From a virus (Duplodnaviria; Heunggongvirae; Uroviricota; Caudoviricetes), in IMG/VR virus record IMGVR_UViG_2721755676_000004: a stretch of 54,213 nt of DNA; one strand, written 5' to 3'. Each line of letters begins with the position of its first letter. Position 1 is the first letter of the stretch. The notes beneath the pieces are model-generated. The model did not search any database, was not told the DNA's origin, and saw only the letters and a program-made list of their open reading frames with translations. A program made the position numbers and the translations under genes. Shown here in pieces: positions 1,815-48,214 of this stretch.

Positions 1815-4800
1815 TATGCAAGCCTCACAATATAGTTAAATGCGATGTTTTTGACGGTGTTTTCCGCGTTACCAGCAGCGTTAACGGTGATGGTGTGTCC
1901 ATGTGAACCAATCGCAACGGAGTGCGTATGAGCACCAATACCGACAGTATGCGCGTGTGCACCTGCAGATGCTGCTGTGCCGGACAGTGAGTGGCTATGA
2001 TTACCATCTGTACTGGTATTAGCTAACCACCCCGTAGACATACCTACTGAGCCTTGTACACCCCAGGTATTTTGACCTGAGCTTGTATAACCATATTGAT
2101 AAGTATCTTTAAAAACACTGGGGTTAAATCGACGGCCATCTCTATGGCTGTGATTACCAGCTGCATTCGTGCTGCCACTTAAACTATGGGTATGCGCACC
2201 AGTGTTATTCGTGGATTTAGTGCCGTAATCAAACGACGATGTGGTTTTCGTCCCCAAATCCGTACTGGATGCGCTGGCGCTGTGGGTATGCGATTTAATG
2301 CCGTCCTGTTCCTGAGACAATACGGCCCGACCACTGGCAGGTTTGCCCTTAATCGTCCAGCCACGCATATCAGGGATCACGCCTGACGGATAAGCCGCTG
2401 CAAGTTTCGGGTATGCAGATTTGTCAAAAGTCTGCCCCTGCATCAGGGCATAGCCAGACGGAACGGTATCTGATGGCCACGGGATTGGTGCACCGACTGG
2501 ATAAAACTCTGCAGGAGGATGAGCCGAGGTGTAAAGCTGCGCCCACGGCGACCAGTTTGCGTCGGTCGTATCCCGTCGTGAACGAATAAATGCCGGAGCA
2601 TGAGCACCGCTTGTACCACTCCAGCCGATGAGTAACTCACCTTCGCCAACGGCTGTCATCCCTTTCAGGTGAATGATATTTCCATACGCTGTTGGATATC
2701 CGTTGTTATACACCTCGTATAACTCAAGACCTGTTGCCCCCTGCGTATTGTCTGTCAGCGCGGTTACCCGACCTTTTGAAGACAGATTAACTGATGATAC
2801 TGCTGTTCCACCTGACGGTAATGCCCCGATCTCTGATGCCGTTGGCTTATTTCTGGAGTTATAGTCCCTTCGCCAGCCAGGTGAATAATCTGTTCCGTGA
2901 TTAATATAGGTAAACTGGGCGTTAGTTGTTCCGCCACCAGTGGAGGTAGTCGGTGTGGTAATGCGGATCGTCATCGCTGACTTTATCCCCATTACTTCAA
3001 TGACAGCTCCTGCGAGATGAATATTACCGCAGCCAGTATCAGTAATGATTTTATTATTGCCATAAGACCAGGAACCCTTGCACATCCAGTATGGATGGTT
3101 AAATGCTCCCTGAGAATCCAGCCACTCGATAAACTGTGCAGTCGTCCAGTCTCCTGTTGTTGTGCTTACTGACCCACCGAAGGCACGGCTGGCACCAATA
3201 TTTTTCGTAAAGGTGTCTTTGCCAGGGATATCCGCACCGTTCTTATCTTTCTGCAGACGTTTCTCAGCATTGTCATTGGCTGCTTTTACTGCCTTTGGCG
3301 TTGCTGCCAGCGTTTCAGACGTGCTGTTGGTCGCGCTGCTTAGCTGGACTATCCCTTTCTGTGCTGTCGTTGCATCCTGTGCGGTGTATTTCCCGTCAGC
3401 CAGGTCATACGCGGCCTTAACTGCTTTTGGCGTTGCCGCCAGTGACTCGGAAGTGCTGTTGGTCGCACTGCTGAGCTGTACTATCCCCTTTTTCGTCGTG
3501 CTCGCATCCTCAAGCGCCACGGCGGATGCAATATCCTCTGCCCGTTTTGCCGCTGTCTCAGCGCGCGTTGCCGCGGATTCCGCCGTACTTTTGCTCTGTG
3601 CTGCCGCCGTCGCACTGCCAGCTGCCTCTGTCGCCTTCGTGGATGCTGTCGTGGCGCTGCCCTTCGCTGCTGACGCTTGTCTGGTCGCCTCATCTTTTGA
3701 AGCAGACGCAGATGATGCCGATGACGCCGCCGAACTGGCGGACGATGCGGCAGCCGTTTTTGAGGATTCTGCGCTGGTTTCCGACGCTTTCGCGTTCGTC
3801 TCGGATGTCTTCGCTGCGGAAGCAGACCTCGCTGCTGCGCTGGCCTGTTCAGTGGCTTCGCCAGCCTTCGTTGTGGCTGTTGAAGCAGACGATGCGGCAC
3901 TTTCTGCCGATTTTCCGGCGGCGGTGGCACTGGCTGAGGCCTGCCCGGCACTTGTTGACGCGGCACTGGCAGACGACGCAGCCGCTGTTTTTGAGCCTGC
4001 CGCAGCCGAGGCGCTCTGTCCCGCTGCCGTTTCAGAAGACCTGGCGTTTGTCTCAGACGTCTTTGCCGCCTTCGCGGAATTGCCTGCCGCCGTTGCCGAG
4101 GAAGCGGCACTACTGGCGCTTGATGATGCGTTCGTTTCTGATGATTTCGCTGCCTCTTTTGAGGCCGCCGCATCCCGGGCTGAGGTGGCTGCTTCTGACG
4201 CCTTCGTGGTCGCGGCGGATGCAGAAGTGGCTGCTGATTGTTGTGACGCTGCCGCATTCGTTTCTGACGTTTTCGCCGCAGCGGCACTGGTAGCTGCCGC
4301 GCTTTTTGAGGACTCTGCAGCAGCAGCACTTTTCGATGCTTCACTGGCCTTTGTTGATGCCGTTCCTGCGCTGGAAGATGCTGACTGAGCCGACGACGCG
4401 GCCTGTCCGGCTGACGTGCTGGCTGCGCGTGCTGAGCCTGCAGCATCAGTCGCATGGGTTGCCGCCTCACGTGCTGATGTGCCGGCATCGCTGGCTGACT
4501 TCTTCGCGGCTGCCGTGTTCTGTGCCACCGCGGACGCGTTACGCACCACCTCTTCCACCATCAGTTCAAAACGGCGCAGAGCCTCCGGACGGGCATCATC
4601 CTCCGTCATGGCACCGAGAAAATCATTCAGCGTACCGGGTTGAGAATCTTCATACACGGTGATGGTCCCGGCATGTGACGGCGGGAATCCTTCCACCAAC
4701 AGAATAACGCTGTACTGACCGTACTCAACGTCCATGCTGTAACGCCCGGCTTCATCCGGATTTTCTGAGGCCAGCGTGTTTACCACCACCGTGGTACTGT

Positions 4801-4949: not shown

Positions 4950-5549
4950 TCAGAATTTATAACCAACACCCACGATGAACCCGTCAGTGCGCCAGTCACC
5001 ACTGCCGGAGCCTTCATAAGCGACATCAATGGCCACGGATTCGGTCGGGTTAAACTGCACGCCAGCCCCCCACACCAGAGACGTGTTGCTGTGGCGACCG
5101 TCATCACTTCCGGTCAGCACATCGTGCGTTTTCCCCTTATTGTCAGTTACGCGGATATAATCCCCGGAAAAAGTCGACACACGGCTGTAAGCCACACCCG
5201 CCATCGCATACGCGCTGAACCATTCATTCACGCGTACAGACGGCCCCGCCATCACGCTGAACCAGCGGTTACGCACGGAATCTTCATACCAGCGGGTATC
5301 GCTGTAACGGGTCAGCTGGCGATTCTTGTCTCCTGCATAGCTGAACGACGTCACCATCCCCAGTGTGTCCGTAAACTCATAACGGTATTTCACGTTAATC
5401 CCGTTCAGATCATCACTGCCGGGAACGTTCGTCCGGGCATGAAGATACCCCGCGCTCAGCGTGGACTGATGTTCAGATGCCCATGCAGGCGCACCGGATA
5501 CGGCCAGACAAATGGCTGCGGAAAAAATGGCGGCATAAAGTTTACGCAT
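4950..5549 (-). CDS. lom: Outer membrane beta-barrel protein Lom (Ail/Lom family)
   Basis: 199 aa; signal peptide; alternating amphipathic strands; C-terminal aromatic residue (GYKF); position between J and stf as in lambda. Confidence 0.85.
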   Translation of the reverse strand: MRKLYAAIFSAAICLAVSGAPAWASEHQSTLSAGYLHARTNVPGSDDLNGINVKYRYEFTDTLGMVTSFSYAGDKNRQLTRYSDTRWYEDSVRNRWFSVMAGPSVRVNEWFSAYAMAGVAYSRVSTFSGDYIRVTDNKGKTHDVLTGSDDGRHSNTSLVWGAGVQFNPTESVAIDVAYEGSGSGDWRTDGFIVGVGYKF

Positions 5550-31315: not shown

Positions 31316-31530
31316 TATTCACCTCTCGCAGCCTTGCGCTTATCTTCTTTAATCTTGAAATAAAGGTTTGTCAGGTACGTCAGCAGGCCAAATACCAGAC
31401 TACCCAGCACACCGATTGCAGCCCACTGTGACGGAGTTACTCTATCGAGCAACTGTAAAAACCAGTAGCCAGCACTGCCTGCGGAGGTGCCGTAGGCAAT
31501 GCCTGTTGAAATTTTGTCCATGGATTTCAT
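31315..31530 (-). CDS. Pinholin (phage 21 S-like), dual-start motif
   Basis: Starts [10 protein letters not shown] (two Met codons three codons apart); two TM helices; AGGTGAGG SD upstream; ATGA overlap with endolysin start. Confidence 0.8.
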
Positions 31531-41357: not shown

Positions 41358-43361
41358 TTAACGAACCAGATGCAGGAAGTGCAGGTGTTTTTCGTACTGG
41401 TCCAGTATGTCATTAATCAGCTGTTCCTGATTCCAGCCCATTACATCATAATTTTGGCCGCCCTCTTTGAGATAGACTTCAGCGCGATAATATCGATGTT
41501 GTTCACTCTGCTGCTCATCATTATCCAGCGCAGCGAGCGCGAAGGTCGGTGAGTTATACCCGCGAAGCCTCACTTCATATATATAATTCAGCTCGTTGCC
41601 CAAATCGACTTCAAGGCGAATACGATCCTCGGCGGCGTCACTGATGTGGCTTATCGTTCCCTGCTTGTTAAGTTCCTCCTGAACCAGCGTCATGGCGGGT
41701 TGGATAATGTCGTCCATAAAACGTTTCACAAGAGAGCGCTTCGGCAAATACGCGATATTGCGTAACCTTCTCTGCCAGGGAATTGGGTTACGTGCAGCCG
41801 TAGGAGCAATAGTCGCCATGCTAAGGCTTTCACGCTTGGTCAAATCCCGACGCAGGGCTTTTAACAGTCCGTATATGGATATTAATAAGATAACTGAGAA
41901 GGGCAATGCACTCGCTATCGTTACGGTTTGCAACGCACTCAGCCCCCCTGCGATCAGCAGGGCAATAGCAACAACGCCCATGAGCGATGCCCAGAAAATT
42001 CGCTGCCAGACGGGCGTGTTTGCCACCCCACCTGATGCCAGAGTATCCACAACCATTGCCCCCGAATCAGCAGACGTTACAAAGAAGACGATGACCATCG
42101 CCATTGCAATGAATGACAGCACGGAAGAGAACGGGAAATGCTCCAGGAAATTAAACAGGGCAAGCGCAACATCCTGCTGAACGGTATTGGCGAGGTCAGT
42201 GGCGCCCTGGTTCATGATGAGATAGATGGCGCTGTTTCCAAACACCGTCATCCACATGAGCGTAAAGCCGGCGGGAACAAACAACACGCCAGTCACGAAC
42301 TCACGAATTGTCCTGCCGCGGGAAACGCGTGCAATGAACATACCTACAAACGGCGACCATGAAAGCCACCATCCCCAGTATAATAATGTCCAGCCCCCCA
42401 GCCAGTTGCTCGACTTGGGTTCATACGCGTAAAGGTTGAACGTTTTACTCACCAGTTCCGACAGATAACCACCCGTATTTTCCACAAATGACTTCAGCAG
42501 AAGCACAGTGGGACCCAGGCACAAGACCAGCGCCAGGAGCAACACTGCCAGGCCCAGATTAAGCTCAGACAGGATGCGTATTCCCTTGTCCAGGCCGGAC
42601 ACCACCGAAATCGTCGCTAACCCCGTGATGACCACGATCAAAATGACCTGTACCGTTTCATTGATGGGCACGCCGAAAAGATGGTTCAAACCGGCATTCA
42701 CCTGCAATACACCGTAACCCAGCGATGTTGCAACGCCAAAGACAGTGCCTATCACGGCGAAGATATCAACCGCGTGGCCTATAGGCCCGTAAATGCGATC
42801 GCCGATAATGGGATAGAGCGCAGAACGCAGCGTTAAAGGCAGACCGTGACGGTAACTGAAAAAGGCCAGAATCAGCGCCACGATGGCATAAATTGCCCAT
42901 GCGTGCAGACCCCAGTGGAAGAACGTCAGGCGCATGGCTTCCTTCGCTGCCGCAACGGTCTCTGGAGTGCCGACAGGTGGCGAAAGATAATGCATCACAG
43001 GTTCGGCAACGCCAAAGAACATCAGGCCGATCCCCATCCCTGCCGAAAAAAGCATCGCGAACCAGGAGTGGTAGCTGAAATCAGGCTGCGCATGGTCTGG
43101 GCCCAGCTTTATATCACCGTAACGTGAGAGTCCAAGGAACGTGACGCTCAGTAAAATCAGGGCCACAGCAAGTATGTAGAACCAGCTGGCATTCGTGAAG
43201 ATTTGTTGCTGAAGTAGTTTAAAATTTTTGTCGGCGACATCCGGGAATACGGCGGCAAAGGCGACAAGAAGGAAAATTAGCAAAGCAGATGTAAAGAATA
43301 CCGCTTTGTTAATCTGGCTTGTAGACTTCTTTGGGGTTGTATCATTTTCACTCATAATCAT
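41358..43361 (-). CDS. BCCT-family transporter (BetT/CaiT-like)
   Basis: 667 aa; strong resemblance to E. coli BetT including WTLFYW/WWxAWSPFVG-type motifs and long cytoplasmic C-tail. Confidence 0.85.
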   Translation of the reverse strand: MIMSENDTTPKKSTSQINKAVFFTSALLIFLLVAFAAVFPDVADKNFKLLQQQIFTNASWFYILAVALILLSVTFLGLSRYGDIKLGPDHAQPDFSYHSWFAMLFSAGMGIGLMFFGVAEPVMHYLSPPVGTPETVAAAKEAMRLTFFHWGLHAWAIYAIVALILAFFSYRHGLPLTLRSALYPIIGDRIYGPIGHAVDIFAVIGTVFGVATSLGYGVLQVNAGLNHLFGVPINETVQVILIVVITGLATISVVSGLDKGIRILSELNLGLAVLLLALVLCLGPTVLLLKSFVENTGGYLSELVSKTFNLYAYEPKSSNWLGGWTLLYWGWWLSWSPFVGMFIARVSRGRTIREFVTGVLFVPAGFTLMWMTVFGNSAIYLIMNQGATDLANTVQQDVALALFNFLEHFPFSSVLSFIAMAMVIVFFVTSADSGAMVVDTLASGGVANTPVWQRIFWASLMGVVAIALLIAGGLSALQTVTIASALPFSVILLISIYGLLKALRRDLTKRESLSMATIAPTAARNPIPWQRRLRNIAYLPKRSLVKRFMDDIIQPAMTLVQEELNKQGTISHISDAAEDRIRLEVDLGNELNYIYEVRLRGYNSPTFALAALDNDEQQSEQHRYYRAEVYLKEGGQNYDVMGWNQEQLINDILDQYEKHLHFLHLVR

Positions 43362-43605
43362 TTATTCCATTAATTAAATCCGCACTGGATAGAAGGTACT
43401 ACCTCTCACAGAGTAGCAAAGTTCAACTGGCTATGCGGGGTTAATCGGAATGCATGGTGGAATGAGTGCCGATACAAATCATCCTATATTCTAAGGAGTT
43501 TTAAGTTACTCAGCCTGCCAATTACTGGGGCATTTAATTTGTATGATCTGTATCAAAGCTGGGATATAAGTTAAGTGAAGTATATTAGGCACGAATTACC
43601 AGCGT

Positions 43606-43633
43606 CTGCTCTTGGCACAAAGCGGACAACCAC
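43606..43633. repeat. 28-bp repeat copy B (TTGGCACAAAGCNGAC..CCAC core)
   Basis: Direct repeat of 39933..39960; sits upstream of the BCCT gene. Confidence 0.5.
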
Positions 43634-43695
43634 GCTAGCTCTACCCTGTGCCACAAAATGTCAATTTGCATCTGAACTAATGCACTTTAATCTCG

Positions 43696-44118
43696 TCACT
43701 TCAATAAATACCGAACATCCCCCTGATAAAACGACAATATGCGCTGCATAACTTCGCTCTTCCGGCACTCGCGACAGATTATGTTTAGGCGACTGTCGTA
43801 GCGACGTATTTCTCCGTCAGGTAATGACCAGATAAGGTCCGGATCAACCACAACCGGTTTCTTCAGCTTTGCCCTCGATAATTTTTTGCGGGCATTTTGC
43901 CAGTCTTTACGAGCCTGTTCAGACGGGAATAACCCGTAGCCAGAATTGTATACATCGCCACTGGCAACCAGCTCTCTGGCCAGAACGCTCATCAGATATC
44001 TTGTTGCCCCAGTTTTAGCTTCCAGTTGTCGTAACGTCTCGCGCCCACTCTGGCGTACGAGTTCAAGAACCTGCCCTTTAATTTTTTCCCGCTCTTCTTG
44101 TGTAAAAACTTTTGCCAC
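43696..44118 (-). CDS. Hypothetical early-region protein with C-terminal Cys cluster
   Basis: 140 aa; downstream of replication initiator; CRECR motif. Confidence 0.5.
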   Translation of the reverse strand: MAKVFTQEEREKIKGQVLELVRQSGRETLRQLEAKTGATRYLMSVLARELVASGDVYNSGYGLFPSEQARKDWQNARKKLSRAKLKKPVVVDPDLIWSLPDGEIRRYDSRLNIICRECRKSEVMQRILSFYQGDVRYLLK

Positions 44119-44158: not shown

Positions 44159-45235
44159 TTACCCCCTGAAGCCCGGCGGAATTTCGTTATCCGGTTCAGA
44201 AATATGATTCACACAACGCTGGTTGTTCGTGCCGCTTACCGGGAGCAACCAGGGGTTCTCAAAATTCCGGTCCGGTCCAAAAAACGTCGTCGCTCGCTGA
44301 ACAAATTCCGTTCCCGTTTTCCCGGTAGCCGCCAAGTATCTTGCGTAACGCCTCACGCCATCCAGCATGGCCTCTGGTGGCACCCCCTCGCGTAATCTGG
44401 CCTTCCAGGCACTGAAAGCGGATTTCTTCGGGTTTGCCCCAGCACGCAACGGGTACTCCCGCCAGACCTGTTCGAACACATCCGGATAATCCACTCGTCC
44501 CACAGACTGCCCGGTGTTTTCCGGGACTACCCGATCGGCTTCCCGCTGAATGGCGGAATCGGCTTCAGGCTGCTGCAGTTGGTGTGATTGCTCCGCCCTT
44601 GCGGTCATCACCTGCTGCACAGCGCCCGAATCGGCTTTCAGCGCATACGCTGAATCGGCTTCCGGTGTCGTGCCTGCTGGCTGACCAAGATTGACGGTCT
44701 GAACATCCCCTGCCTGGTTCGTGGCGTTTTTTACGCCATGGACCATAGTGTTTTGATCTTCTTGATCTGTATCTTTATCTGTATCTTTATCTGTCGTGAC
44801 TCGTCGTGACATGTGCGTGACATTTCGTGACGCGCCGTGACAATCGCCATTTTGTTCCCGCTTTCTTTCCCTCTCTCGCTGCGCCCTCTTGCGCTCTGCA
44901 GGAGATTTTGCGGTTTGCGAAATATTGCCGTTGTCCTCTTTAAGCACCTGGCGTTTTTCCCATCCAGTGATTAAATCACCATCAAGTACCCGCCCCTGCA
45001 TCGTCTGCAAAATTGAATCAATTACCTCTTCTGTCACGTCGAGCGCACTTGCCAAATCTTCTGTCGTGACATCAATGTGACCTCGCGTGACATTTCGTGA
45101 CGCGCTCACCAGGAGGTGGATATACACTGCCATCACTGTTGCAATTGGCTGTCCTGACACCCTGGCAATTGTTCGCCACTTAGGGTCATTTGGCATGTCA
45201 TGCCATAATCTGAGCCAGGCGTTAGCCATACTCAC
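44159..45235 (-). CDS. Phage replication initiation protein with internal iterons
   Basis: 358 aa; N-terminal winged-helix-like region, basic linker, C-terminal domain; contains two clusters of CGTGAC direct repeats. Confidence 0.65.
   Translation of the reverse strand: MSMANAWLRLWHDMPNDPKWRTIARVSGQPIATVMAVYIHLLVSASRNVTRGHIDVTTEDLASALDVTEEVIDSILQTMQGRVLDGDLITGWEKRQVLKEDNGNISQTAKSPAERKRAQRERERKREQNGDCHGASRNVTHMSRRVTTDKDTDKDTDQEDQNTMVHGVKNATNQAGDVQTVNLGQPAGTTPEADSAYALKADSGAVQQVMTARAEQSHQLQQPEADSAIQREADRVVPENTGQSVGRVDYPDVFEQVWREYPLRAGANPKKSAFSAWKARLREGVPPEAMLDGVRRYARYLAATGKTGTEFVQRATTFFGPDRNFENPWLLPVSGTNNQRCVNHISEPDNEIPPGFRG
44784..44831. repeat. Iteron cluster 1 (5 x CGTGAC at ~10-bp spacing), candidate ori
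   Basis: tgtCGTGACtcgtCGTGACatgtgCGTGACatttCGTGACgcgcCGTGACa; preceded by ATCTTTATCTGT tandem repeats. Confidence 0.6.
45061..45105. repeat. Iteron cluster 2 (CGTGAC repeats)
   Basis: ctgtCGTGACatcaatGTGACctcgCGTGACatttCGTGACgcg. Confidence 0.55.
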
Positions 45236-45300: not shown

Positions 45301-45726
45301 TCAATGCACAGCCACAATATTTCCTGCAGGGCCACCACGATTCATCTGGTTGAAACCAGCGATCGCCACTGCGACAAAATCATCAGCGTCTCTCACCAGT
45401 CGTTCCCGCGTCTCCACTAGTTCCCGAAAATAGGCTGAGCTATGGCTGCGCATTCGGGCCACCAGCAGAGGTGGCATTGCTTTTTCGATAGCTGGTAACA
45501 ACGCCTGAATTTTTTCAACTGCATCAGGGGTGTCTTTCTCTACCCAGCGGAAAATTTTCTGGGTATTGCGAGCCAGGGCTTCCGGATGGCTGTCGTCATA
45601 CAGTTCTGGGAACGTCATACCCAGTTCAAAATAAGCCCTGGTTATTTCAGCTGCCGGAACTTTTTCACCGTCCGGATGCGCCCAGGCATTCATCGCCATG
45701 CGGATGTGTTCATGCTTGATTTTCAT
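45301..45726 (-). CDS. ydaT: YdaT-like protein
   Basis: 141 aa; position downstream of Cro-like gene as in Rac; assignment from memory of Rac gene order and size. Confidence 0.55.
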   Translation of the reverse strand: MKIKHEHIRMAMNAWAHPDGEKVPAAEITRAYFELGMTFPELYDDSHPEALARNTQKIFRWVEKDTPDAVEKIQALLPAIEKAMPPLLVARMRSHSSAYFRELVETRERLVRDADDFVAVAIAGFNQMNRGGPAGNIVAVH

Positions 45727-45991
45727 GAATCAAGCTCCTAGAAAGTGGTTGTGTTAACATTTTGGTATCTTCCAGCTCGGGCCAAATATTCATCCAATCA
45801 AAAGGCCTTAGTTGCTGACGTGTAACTTCACCATTACTGGCTCGCTCAATAAGGACACATAACGATGCCCCTAACACTTGACCTTTACTCAATGCCTTTC
45901 TTAGATAACCGATGCTGGTACCACACTCGCATGCAAACATACGCTGTTCATCTGACGAAAGAGAATTGAGAAATATTCTTAATTCTTCCAT
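45710..45991 (-). CDS. ydaS: Cro/YdaS-like HTH regulator
   Basis: 93 aa; divergent from repressor gene; HTH region; overlaps ydaT-like start. Confidence 0.6.
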   Translation of the reverse strand: MEELRIFLNSLSSDEQRMFACECGTSIGYLRKALSKGQVLGASLCVLIERASNGEVTRQQLRPFDWMNIWPELEDTKMLTQPLSRSLIHENQA

Positions 45992-46091
45992 AGCTACTCC
46001 TTAGTAAACACAGCAAAGAATACCCATAGGTAAACAAAAGTCAATACCCACAGGTTGTTTACCTTGCAGTAATCGCATCTATTATTTACCT
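45992..46091. promoter_or_regulatory. Divergent promoter/operator region between Cro-like and repressor genes
   Basis: Inverted copies of TACCCATAGGTAAAC / TTTACCTATGG; related palindromes recur at 46553..46592. Confidence 0.5.
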
Positions 46092-46511
46092 ATGGACAAA
46101 TATGAATTTAGACGACAGCAACTCATCAAAATTCGTGATGAGAAATGCGATGGTAAAGCGGTTAACGTGGCCAGAAAGATCGGGCGCGAGCCTTCTTATG
46201 TATCAAGAATGTTGTACCCAGAGGGGAAAAAGGGAAAAAAACGGATCGCTGATGATATGGTGGAGATTATCGAAGAGTCCTTTGGGTTACCCCGGGGATG
46301 GATGGATGGTATCGTTTCATCATCAACGAACACAGCCTCCAGTTATGAAACAAGGGTTCTAACGCCACGACAACGTATTTTTTTAGATCTCTTAGACGAA
46401 CTGCCAGAAAGTGAAGCGGATAACTTATTAAAAACTCTTGAAGAGAAAAAACAGTATTACAATATGATCTACGAAGAAATCCGTAAAAAGAAAGCACAAA
46501 ACGCATCATAG
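46092..46511 (+). CDS. racR: Prophage repressor (RacR-like)
   Basis: 139 aa; HTH; divergently transcribed from Cro-like gene. Confidence 0.65.
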   Translation: MDKYEFRRQQLIKIRDEKCDGKAVNVARKIGREPSYVSRMLYPEGKKGKKRIADDMVEIIEESFGLPRGWMDGIVSSSTNTASSYETRVLTPRQRIFLDLLDELPESEADNLLKTLEEKKQYYNMIYEEIRKKKAQNAS

Positions 46512-46765
46512 CTCACCAAACAACTAGTCACCAGTTAAGACACCGCAAAAAGTTACCCATGGGTATTTACTTTTTAAATACCTATGGGTATCCTTCTTTT
46601 CATACCAACCCACCCCGCCCCACAGAATGCAGGGCAATACTTCGAGTTACCAGGCAGTGGTCAGGGGTTAAGTAGCCAGCCCGAGGCGTAAGAACATGAC
46701 GGCGGGATTCAAATTTTGCAGTGCAGCAGTTAGTTCCGCCACCCGGCGTTAAGGGGAGAGATAAG

Positions 46766-46900
46766 ATGGTGCATTACGAAGTAGTTCAGTATTTGATGGA
46801 TTGTTGCGGTATCACTTACAACCAGGGTGTGCAGGCTTTACGCAGCAACGACTGGGATCTCTGGCAGGCAGAAGTCGCTATACGTAGCAACAAGATGTGA
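46766..46900 (+). CDS. Small protein (44 aa), YdaG-like
   Basis: Not in ORF track; AAGGGGAGAG SD before ATG at 46766; MVHYEVVQYLMDCCGITYNQGVQALRSNDWDLWQAEVAIRSNKM. Confidence 0.4.
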   Translation: MVHYEVVQYLMDCCGITYNQGVQALRSNDWDLWQAEVAIRSNKM

Positions 46901-46910
46901 GATTCGCAAA

Positions 46911-47066
46911 ATGCAAAAAATCGACCTCGGCAACAACGAATCCCTGGTGTGCGGCGTGTTCCCCAACCAGGATGGAACGTTCACTGCCATGACGTATACC
47001 AAAAGCAAAACATTTAAAACCGAAACTGGTGCGCGCCGATGGTTGGAGAAGCACACAGTAAGCTAA
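46911..47066 (+). CDS. Small protein (51 aa), YdaF-like
   Basis: Internal ATG of the 79-aa track ORF gives MQKIDLGNNESLVCGVFPNQDG...; size matches Rac YdaF. Confidence 0.45.
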   Translation: MQKIDLGNNESLVCGVFPNQDGTFTAMTYTKSKTFKTETGARRWLEKHTVS

Positions 47067-47551
47067 CGATTAAAACGTCTACTCCTGCTGTTCCATAATA
47101 ACTTCATAAAATGGGAGTATTTTTCGGTGACGAGATAATAAGAACAGTTTGCGCTATCACTCTGATGTTGAATGATGCCCTTCCGTTCTAATTTTTTCAT
47201 AACCGGGTTACGGCAAGGAGAAGTGATAATAAGATTTCCTGTTTTAAGGAAATCTTTAAATACAGCGATTTCTTTCTCAGATAAACGAAGCAATACTCGT
47301 TGCTCTGGTAGTAATGAATAATGCTTTTGAATATGTGCTCGCAATCTTGAGAAGGAAATGGCGACCACGAAAGAAAAGGCAAAAACGATAATCTGAAAGA
47401 GCCAAGGTATTTCAGTATAAGCATTGAATGCGACAGTAAACTCTTTCGGTATCAGCCAGAGAGTGAGACCAAAAATGATAATCGTATACATAAGTCTTTC
47501 GAGTGGCTCGTTAGCAAAAAGTTTCAACAATGGAGTAAATACATCCAACAT
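47063..47551 (-). CDS. sieB: Superinfection exclusion protein SieB-like
   Basis: 162 aa from internal start MLDVFTPLLK; two TM segments. Confidence 0.65.
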   Translation of the reverse strand: MLDVFTPLLKLFANEPLERLMYTIIIFGLTLWLIPKEFTVAFNAYTEIPWLFQIIVFAFSFVVAISFSRLRAHIQKHYSLLPEQRVLLRLSEKEIAVFKDFLKTGNLIITSPCRNPVMKKLERKGIIQHQSDSANCSYYLVTEKYSHFMKLLWNSRSRRFNR

Positions 47552-47992
47552 ATCAATAACTCTCAACTGTAAGGGTATTGAAATGTTAACACAAGCTCTC
47601 GCTGTAGGGGTATAGCCGAGACCACCGAAGCCCGGAGGTGGTGAAATAAAACCGGGCACAACACGAAGGCGCATTTCCGATATCCATAAAGAGTCGGTCT
47701 TGTCTGTTAAATTTAAATGGTGGGAGTGCGCCTCCGGTTGTAAATAACGACATTGCTGTGTGTAGTCCTGGCGGCATCAGTTTTTTTCTTGAAGTTCGGC
47801 TGATGTCCGCCCTTTTTAAAGTGAATTTTGTGATGCGGTGAATGCGGCTAAGCGCACGTGGCACAGTTAAAAGTCATGTCAGTCCTTATTGGTTTGGGTG
47901 GGAAAGCCGACTGTAATTGTTAACTGGTTGCAGTCACCTGGAGGCACCAGACACCGCATCAACAAAGTTCATTTGTAAAAATGGAGATAATT

Positions 47993-48214
47993 ATGATTGC
48001 ACATCACTTCGGAACTGATGAAATACCACGTCAGTGTGTGACTCCTGGCGATTATGTTCTTCATGAAGGCCGGACATATATTGCCTCGGCAAACAATATT
48101 AAAAAGCGAAAACTATATATTCGTAACCTGACCACAAAAACATTCATTACTGACCGCATGATTAAAGTCTTCCTCGGTCGTGATGGTTTACCTGTAAAGG
48201 CGGAGTCATGGTGA
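47993..48214 (+). CDS. kilR: Killing protein KilR
   Basis: 73 aa from [14 protein letters not shown]; matches Rac KilR from memory. Confidence 0.75.

Follow-up and report, generated by a model that had tools for sequence, protein, structure and literature searches.

Candidate lambda-style operators and an mEp043-type repressor domain in the immunity region of a truncated Rac-family prophage of Escherichia coli

The viral DNA recorded as IMGVR_UViG_2721755676_000004 (54,213 nucleotides, all of which were analysed and which we call the window) contains a pair of divergent genes that an initial annotation, made from the sequence alone, had read as the immunity region of a Rac-family prophage. 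A leftward open reading frame (ORF) of 93 amino acids (45710-45991, - strand), encoding a Cro-like protein, possibly of the YdaS family, and a rightward ORF of 139 amino acids (46092-46511, + strand), encoding the repressor, are separated by a gap of 100 bp (45992-46091). This identification was confirmed by an annotated locus that is 99.9% identical; the region shares that degree of identity with loci in hundreds of E. coli chromosomes, and 812 of 5,426 complete genomes match it over at least 80% of the query. Based on Pfam, the RefSeq annotation of the 99.9% identical locus and comparison with K-12, the element is a truncated, defective Rac-family prophage of E. coli that occupies approximately 43.7-54.2 kb of the window.

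The four palindromic strings that had been quoted as operators of this region are all present, at most 1-2 bases from where the initial annotation had placed them: TACCCATAGGTAAAC at 46021-46035, TTTACCTATGG at 46085-46095 (overlapping the repressor ATG at 46092), TACCCATGGGTA at 46554-46565 and ATACCTATGGGTAT at 46578-46591. The symmetric core TACCNNNNGGTA (TACC-N4-GGTA) has four exact matches in the 54,213 bp where 0.29 would be expected, a number reached in 0 of 100 shuffles. Three of these four lie near the repressor gene (at 46021, 46554 and 46579), and a scan allowing one mismatch adds two further sites at 46045 (TACCCACAGGTT) and 46060 (TACCTTGCAGTA), so that the surroundings of the repressor gene hold five sites in 570 bp against approximately 0.12 expected (by arithmetic from the one-mismatch scan). 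Five sites clustered in this way are not a product of chance. The fourth exact match, TACCAGCGGGTA at 5287-5298, is isolated, far outside the prophage and consistent with chance. The proposal that the palindromes are operators was consistent with every sequence-level test applied here (enrichment, comparison with phage mEp043, and layout across the 46 related loci described below), and we regard it as very probable that the TACC-N4-GGTA palindromes are genuine operators, belonging to an ordinary switch of the lambda type.

Three related operators, O1, O2 and O3, occupy the divergent gap in the manner of a lambdoid right operator (OR), at -71, -47 and -32 from the repressor ATG. O1 (TACCCATAGGTA, 46021-46032) matches the core exactly, while O2 (46045-46056) and O3 (46060-46071) are the one-mismatch sites given above; these two, although conserved, were not among the copies first listed. 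A promoter consensus scan of 45900-46800 called exactly two promoters, PR and PRM, by consensus match, each agreeing with the consensus at 9 of 12 positions and each overlapping operators. The PR-like promoter (46017-46044, - strand) consists of a -35 TTGACT (46044-46039), a 16-nt spacer and a -10 TATTCT (46022-46017); O1 lies within its spacer and -10, and O2 abuts its -35. Its start is predicted at about 46010. The PRM-like promoter (46058-46085, + strand) has a -35 TTTACC, which O3 overlaps, a 16-nt spacer and a -10 TATTAT that ends 6 nt before the repressor ATG. Because the -10 is only 6 nt from the ATG, and because most family loci likewise have a -10-like hexamer 6-7 nt upstream of the ATG and no Shine-Dalgarno sequence (judged by eye), the repressor mRNA is probably leaderless, with a predicted PRM start at the A of the ATG at 46092. 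Leaderless starts have been documented experimentally for paaR2 and lambda cI (PMC8630535). From the predicted start, O2 is centred at -41.5 and O1 at -65.5. The corresponding lambda values are about -42 for OR2 and about -66 for OR1. The geometry of O2 is thus that of lambda OR2, and O2 may therefore serve to activate PRM.

The copy that the initial annotation had named over the start codon has two mismatches to the core. It could represent a weak fourth site (TACCTATGGACA, 46087-46098), of doubtful function; as a conserved operator it was rejected, having no counterpart in mEp043 or in any of the 46 related loci.

Downstream of the repressor gene, two further exact matches, OL1 (46554-46565, the third of the quoted strings) and OL2 (TACCTATGGGTA, 46579-46590), are spaced 25 bp apart, with OL1 starting 42 bp past the repressor stop. 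OL1 stands immediately upstream of the -35 of a PL-like promoter (46566-46594, + strand; -35 TTTACT, 17-nt spacer, -10 TATCCT; read by eye), and OL2 lies in its spacer and overlaps its -10. The PL start is predicted at about 46601. The same PL-type order of site, -35, site and -10 is conserved in the family, in which OL1 is followed in most loci by TTGAC, the usual -35 there, and OL2 runs into a -10-like hexamer. More than just an accessory looping site, the downstream palindromes appear to be the equivalent of the lambda left operator (OL), bracketing the -35 and overlapping the -10 of the promoter of the early-left operon. Cooperative or looping control by such dispersed sites is possible.

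The repressor itself (46092-46511) comprises a MDKYE-type N-terminal DNA-binding domain (residues 1 to approximately 75), a linker, and a DicA-type helical C-terminal domain (residues approximately 89-139). A Pfam search matched no family, RefSeq labels the protein 'hypothetical protein', and its PHROG is 5736, a transcriptional regulator. In database searches, residues 1 to approximately 75 were 70-82% identical to the N-termini of S24 (LexA-type) repressors of 221-242 amino acids, CI homologues from Salmonella, Edwardsiella, Yersinia, Klebsiella, Pantoea and other genera, and 65-76% identical to the N-terminal domain of mEp043 cI. Homologues with this N-terminal domain carry PF00717, whereas the repressor here is without an S24 peptidase domain. 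Its residues 89-139 instead resemble the C-terminus of K-12 DicA (33% identity, E 1e-7); the NCBIfam DicA model NF007257 (2.8e-5, 23.9 bits against a cut-off of 101) matches at model positions 81-131 only, a C-terminal rather than a full-length match to the DicA family. The C-terminal domain is also closely similar to the C-terminus of phage Tritos CI, to which the identity overall is 39% over 119 residues.

An AlphaFold2 (AF2) model of the repressor (predicted local distance difference test, pLDDT, 81) has a four-helix helix-turn-helix domain, a disordered linker and two C-terminal helices, and its fold matches were XRE-type repressors, C proteins and HigA, all with weak E-values, of which that for the Salmonella phage Rep (1.3e-3) was the lowest. 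Matches to Z-alpha domains in a PDB sequence search were marginal (E 0.08) and were treated as noise. The predicted recognition helix, SYVSRMLY, is essentially invariant across the family (S35, Y36, V37, R39, M40, L41 and Y42 being invariant or nearly so), and the recognition segment REPSYVSRMLYPEGK is identical in mEp043 cI and the window's repressor. By homology, then, the repressor is a chimera that joins an mEp043-type DNA-binding domain to a DicA-type C-terminal domain and has no self-cleavage domain. No LexA box was found within the prophage, and given the missing S24 domain as well, release of repression would not proceed through RecA-mediated self-cleavage. Among the protein matches surveyed for fusion partners (P0031-P0120), this one N-terminal domain was joined to at least three kinds of C-terminus, namely DicA-type helical, several S24 subtypes, and other short tails (e.g. 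P0102, P0118).

To place these sites in a wider family, a profile scan of genome contigs, one genome per species, yielded 46 gamma- and beta-proteobacterial loci, ranging from Enterobacterales to Neisseria, Burkholderia, Xanthomonas and Ferrovum; a scan of viral contigs with the N-terminal domain returned 80 loci, all 100% identical, and was discarded as uninformative. Sites recur at approximately -73, -48 and -33 from the repressor ATG in about 40 of the 46 loci, and each has its own conserved character: the O1 equivalent is found at -71 to -75 in about 40 of the 46 and in mEp043; O2 (-47/-48) is always degenerate in its last two bases and preceded by TCAA, the -35 TTGAYT of the opposite-strand promoter, so that the juxtaposition of O2 and the PR -35 is itself a family feature; and O3 (-32/-33) is usually an exact site, as it is (TACCTTGCGGTA) in the same cassette of two other loci (L132 and L134). 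The downstream pair, 24-26 bp apart, is present in 30 of the 46 loci and in mEp043, at 0.04-1.8 kb past the repressor stop. Approximately 185 sites show hardly any variation in the TACC and GGTA bases, while the central four vary with a preference for Y-R-Y-R, giving an operator consensus of tTACC-YRYR-GGTAa.

The sites appear to follow the N-terminal domain of the repressor, because five Klebsiella loci (L086, L089, L090, L092 and L093) keep this domain together with O1, O3 and an OL site or pair while missing both O2 and the Cro homologue, and because Tritos shares the C-terminal domain and not the sites. An Orbus locus similarly keeps repressor domain and sites without a Cro homologue, and the loci that have no sites (L106, L124 and L129) are among the most divergent or atypical. 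In the Klebsiella variant of OR (upstream of position 2501) an unrelated T-rich sequence stands in place of O2.

On the other side of the gap, the Cro-like protein is 73% identical to mEp043 Cro, and its homologue lies divergent to the repressor gene in 37 of the 46 loci. Its relationship to the PDB Cro entries 8c7k/8co2 is distant (1e-10), its Pfam YdaS score (25.8 bits) falls under the cut-off of 30, and it aligns with K-12 YdaS over only 28 residues. The next gene, ydaT (45301-45726, - strand), encodes a predicted CII-analogue activator of the type found in the prophage CP-933P (Pfam YdaT_toxin, 39.6 bits against a cut-off of 21; PHROG, CII-like activator), 99% identical to PDB 3c4r, approximately 85% identical to CP-933P YdaT (8bt1; counted from the alignment) and 33% identical to K-12 YdaT. 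In CP-933P, YdaT footprints a TTGATT-N6-AATCAA inverted repeat at the end of ydaS (PMC9986795) and activates a PRE-like promoter directed towards the repressor, with no YdaT toxicity seen (PMC8630535). The only exact match to this repeat in the window, TTGATTTTCATGAATCAA at 45716-45733, covers the 3' end of the Cro-like gene together with the start codon of ydaT, as a putative PRE-region analogue; the YdaT orthologue and the exact box at a ydaS/ydaT-type junction together constitute a YdaT/PRE module of the CP-933P type.

Collectively, these features make it highly likely that the locus is an immunity switch built like that of lambda, with the DNA specificity of mEp043, in a truncated Rac-family prophage. 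The earlier description of an immunity switch was thus right in kind, and needs amending on these points: the repressor is a protein other than RacR, the sites beyond its gene form OL at PL, and O1, O2 and O3 are the conserved OR sites. From motif enrichment, conserved layout, promoter-consensus overlap and domain homologies we infer binding, transcription starts, activation from O2 and physiology as follows. The repressor, as an XRE-like helix-turn-helix dimer, would bind inverted repeats of 12-14 bp conforming to the consensus. At O1 and O2 together it would shut off PR and with it the leftward operon of the Cro-like gene, ydaT, a replication-initiator gene and a DUF977 gene; at O3, on the PRM -35, it would exert negative autoregulation; at O2 it may also activate PRM; and at OL1/OL2 it would silence PL and thereby ydaG, ydaF, kilR, ydaE, racC, recE and recT. 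The Cro-like protein, co-inherited with the sites, would bind the same operators to impose the opposite state, and YdaT, at its exact box, would activate establishment transcription in the direction of the repressor gene, as its CP-933P counterpart does.

Several points weigh against this model. The O2-O3 spacing of 15 bp makes joint occupancy and a lambda-like activation logic uncertain; PL agrees with the consensus at 8 of 12 positions, below the threshold of the scan, which did not call it; co-occurrence cannot fully separate binding by the repressor from binding by Cro; termination is a second plausible function of the OL pair; and the searchable literature holds no binding, transcription or genetic data on the window's repressor or the mEp043 operators.

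It is most improbable that the 139-amino-acid protein does not bind the sites and that their sole ligand is the Cro-like protein or some other factor, for example YdaT. The co-occurrence of the Cro homologue with the sites in 37 of 46 loci would fit such an arrangement, but the five Klebsiella loci and the Orbus locus have repressor domain and sites without that Cro, the loci that have lost the sites are divergent or atypical ones, and YdaT recognizes a different repeat. Nearly as improbable is the proposition that the OL palindromes are only the intrinsic terminator of the repressor gene, an RNA hairpin with a U-tract rather than protein-binding sites. A terminator scan does call a terminator-like hairpin on the + strand at 46554-46600, in which OL1 pairs with OL2 (16-bp stem, 5-nt loop and U-rich tail; minimum free energy -24.1 kcal/mol, z = -5.2), and the 42-bp gap between the repressor stop and OL1 holds no other terminator, whereas of the 17 other compact cassettes, those with OL close behind the repressor gene, 14 contain a distinct GC-rich one there. 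At the family level, however, the terminator-only interpretation was rejected: 30 divergent loci as well as mEp043 keep the pair, at distances from the repressor stop that reach 1.8 kb and always with -35-like and -10-like hexamers after the sites; the central bases of OL1 are no more complementary to those of OL2 than in permuted pairs (2.19 versus 2.21); most family OL pairs fold weakly and have no T-tract; and the OL sites match the OR consensus exactly. A dual role is compatible with the lambda-style switch that we favour, and for this particular pair the chances that it doubles as terminator of the repressor transcript, acting as operators in DNA and as terminator in RNA, seem to us about even, because the hairpin is an outlier, no separate terminator is present, and the repressor gene and PL are transcribed in the same direction. 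Of 32 loci, the window has both the strongest OL hairpin and the shortest gap between stop and OL1, and its pair carries an extra palindromic spacer (TTTA...TAAA). More tentatively, and with rather less confidence than in the dual role by itself, we propose a combined picture in which the 37-bp OL1-OL2 unit supplies the PL operators plus a terminator that blocks read-through of the leaderless transcript into the kilR operon, replacing the dedicated terminator of most relatives, and in which the repressor, lacking a cleavage domain, confers permanent, SOS-insensitive immunity against mEp043-type phages.

A different question is what the switch restrains. The initial annotation had pointed to Rac, where the repressor is essential because it silences a toxic ydaS-ydaT operon, and had taken the sites here as probably controlling a host-lethal function; on such a RacR-type model, deletion would be lethal and would be rescued by removing the Cro-like and ydaT-like genes. 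The Rac-family context speaks for such a model, as do the findings in K-12 that RacR is essential and represses ydaST (PMC5700373, PMC5700377) and the conservation of the gene, its segment being present in 820 complete RefSeq genomes, 708 of which agree with the window throughout a stretch of 84 nt. The repressor, however, has no detectable similarity to RacR (158 amino acids; BLASTP, best E 2.3), and the operators footprinted with RacR, (T/A)TAGGC-n3-GCCTA(T/A) (PMC9638921), are absent from the prophage, the only match with at most one mismatch lying outside it at 31493 and being no more than chance would give; K-12 essentiality is for these reasons not simply transferable. The toxicity seen in K-12 comes specifically from the action of K-12 YdaT on host targets, independently of kilR, whereas the YdaT here, only 33% identical to that toxic protein, is of the CP-933P type, for which toxicity was not detected (PMC8630535, PMC11014345); it has in fact been argued that YdaS and YdaT are counterparts of Cro and CII rather than toxins (PMC5917428, PMC8630535). 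Cells could moreover survive in a Cro-dominated state or after excision of the prophage, and lethality is at least as likely to arise from kilR or from replication in situ. We therefore consider a RacR-type essential repressor of toxic ydaS-ydaT unlikely here; of the genes that these operators would control, kilR on the PL side is the most clearly damaging to the host. Conservation of the repressor gene is no proof of essentiality, and frameshifts are no proof of dispensability. The gene contains an A7 run (46235-46241) that is A8, and frameshifted, in a few GenBank assemblies (L132, L133 and L134). These alleles, considered as a sign of a dispensable gene, were rejected as such, and they are probably homopolymer sequencing or assembly errors rather than phase variation, because none of the 820 RefSeq complete genomes carries A8.

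The early-left side of the prophage follows the order of K-12 Rac, with ydaG, ydaF, sieB, kilR, ydaE, racC, recE, recT, ralR, rcbA, xis and int; the start of the operon under PL (46766-48214, + strand; Pfam DUF1391 and SieB) comprises ydaG (46766-46900), ydaF (46911-47066) and kilR (47981-48214), while sieB (47063-47674; Pfam SieB) is on the opposite strand to these three. Between sieB and kilR lies a DicF-like RNA (47757-47812, + strand) whose score of 39.1 bits is below the gathering score of 48, followed by a weak STnc100 match (47814-48000, + strand); in K-12 the small RNA kilS is annotated in this position between sieB and kilR. The leader of approximately 170 nt between PL and ydaG (46596-46765) recurs almost unchanged in K-12 Rac and, over its first 100 nt or so, in phage Tritos, although the three elements have different immunity cassettes; a structured RNA in this leader was unsupported (fold z = 0.03, and no match in Rfam). 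On the other side, the Cro-like gene, ydaT and the replication-initiator gene (44159-45235) are followed by the DUF977 gene, after which the right arm stops abruptly (in the stretch 43362-43700) and directly abuts a host gene for a BCCT transporter (41358-43361). Lysis and structural genes are absent, so that the element is a remnant of approximately 10.5 kb. The same cassette of Cro-like gene, OR, repressor and OL is found (at approximately 3880-4520) in L132, L133 and L134, which are Qin/DicB-type lambdoid prophages whose backbones carry different replication and early-left genes. As judged from these sequences, the immunity cassette moves between prophage backbones.

Although the general picture of lambdoid switches is unchanged by this analysis and the type of switch is itself well known, some modest added interest attaches to the conserved operator code of a domain that has no Pfam family and to the possible combination of operator and terminator. 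With a consensus derived from sequence and a fixed OR/OL geometry for a DNA-binding domain spread over gamma- and beta-proteobacterial prophages, the immunity specificity of many of these prophages becomes predictable. An easy mis-annotation is also corrected, as approximately 820 complete E. coli genomes carry the cassette and the K-12 RacR results are inapplicable to its repressor. The family further offers a clean example of domain and module swapping, in which one DNA-binding domain is found with S24, DicA-type or other tails and the DicA-type tail with other DNA-binding domains. Three predictions follow: the cassette should confer cross-immunity with mEp043, SOS induction should leave it unaffected, and OL should act as operator and terminator in one.

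The closest known system for DNA recognition is mEp043, whose OR carries sites of the same TACC-N4-GGTA type (TACCTGTAGGTA, TACCCATAGGTT and TACCGGCAGGTA, upstream of cI, with starts spaced 25 and 15 bp, against 24 and 15 bp in the window) and whose OL carries TACCTATAGGTA and TACCTGTAGGTA before N, 25 bp apart as in the window; we found no study of its operators, nor any report of the motif, in the searchable literature. The two share similar repressor N-terminal domains and Cro proteins (at the identities given above) and a -10 located 6 nt before the repressor ATG. They differ in that mEp043 cI has 228 amino acids and an S24 LexA-type cleavage domain where the window's repressor has a 50-residue DicA-type helical domain, and in that mEp043 has a lambda-type cII, N/nut and a separate terminator before OL, while the window has YdaT and no separate terminator.

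In overall organization the prophage in the window resembles CP-933P of E. coli O157:H7 (PaaR2, YdaS, YdaT), also a cryptic lambdoid prophage with a small repressor. There the repressor mRNA is leaderless, a gap of about 97 bp contains OR together with PR and PRM, an OL/PL set follows the repressor operon, and YdaS and YdaT play the parts of Cro and CII; each of these features has a likely counterpart here, including the similar YdaT and its exact box. The operator repeat of CP-933P, on the other hand, has the consensus GTTTAGTAA and not TACC-N4-GGTA (PMC8630535, PMC9986795), and behind the gene of PaaR2, a protein that begins MQKKE, lies a toxin-antitoxin pair, paaA2-parE2, that is lacking here. 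K-12 Rac belongs to the same family as the prophage in the window, with ydaG, ydaF, sieB, kilR, racC, recET and int flanking both immunity regions, and its layout is the same: there, too, the divergent gap contains three operators, and additional copies lie between the repressor gene and ydaG. Its repeats, however, in the gap and downstream of racR, are of the TTAGGC/GCCTAA type, the sites that were footprinted with RacR, and its YdaS and YdaT are the distant relatives described above. Directly beyond the downstream palindromes, at ...CCACCCCGCCCCACAGAA, the window becomes homologous to K-12 again, which places the palindromes at the edge of a swapped immunity cassette.

With lambda, the cassette shares a tripartite OR between divergent PR and PRM, an O1-O2 spacing of 24 bp, a (predicted) leaderless repressor mRNA and an OL at PL. 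Lambda has a different and longer operator sequence, 23 bp rather than 15 bp between the second and third sites, three OL sites rather than two, and an OL that is 2.4 kb rather than 0.5 kb from OR, and the window's repressor lacks the S24/RecA-cleavage domain. For the other half of the chimeric repressor the nearest relatives are Qin DicA and Tritos CI, short repressors of approximately 135-139 amino acids with the same C-terminal helical domain (LxP..LL.L...LPESE.D...EE), whose N-terminal domains are standard XRE helix-turn-helix domains and whose operators differ from those of the window.

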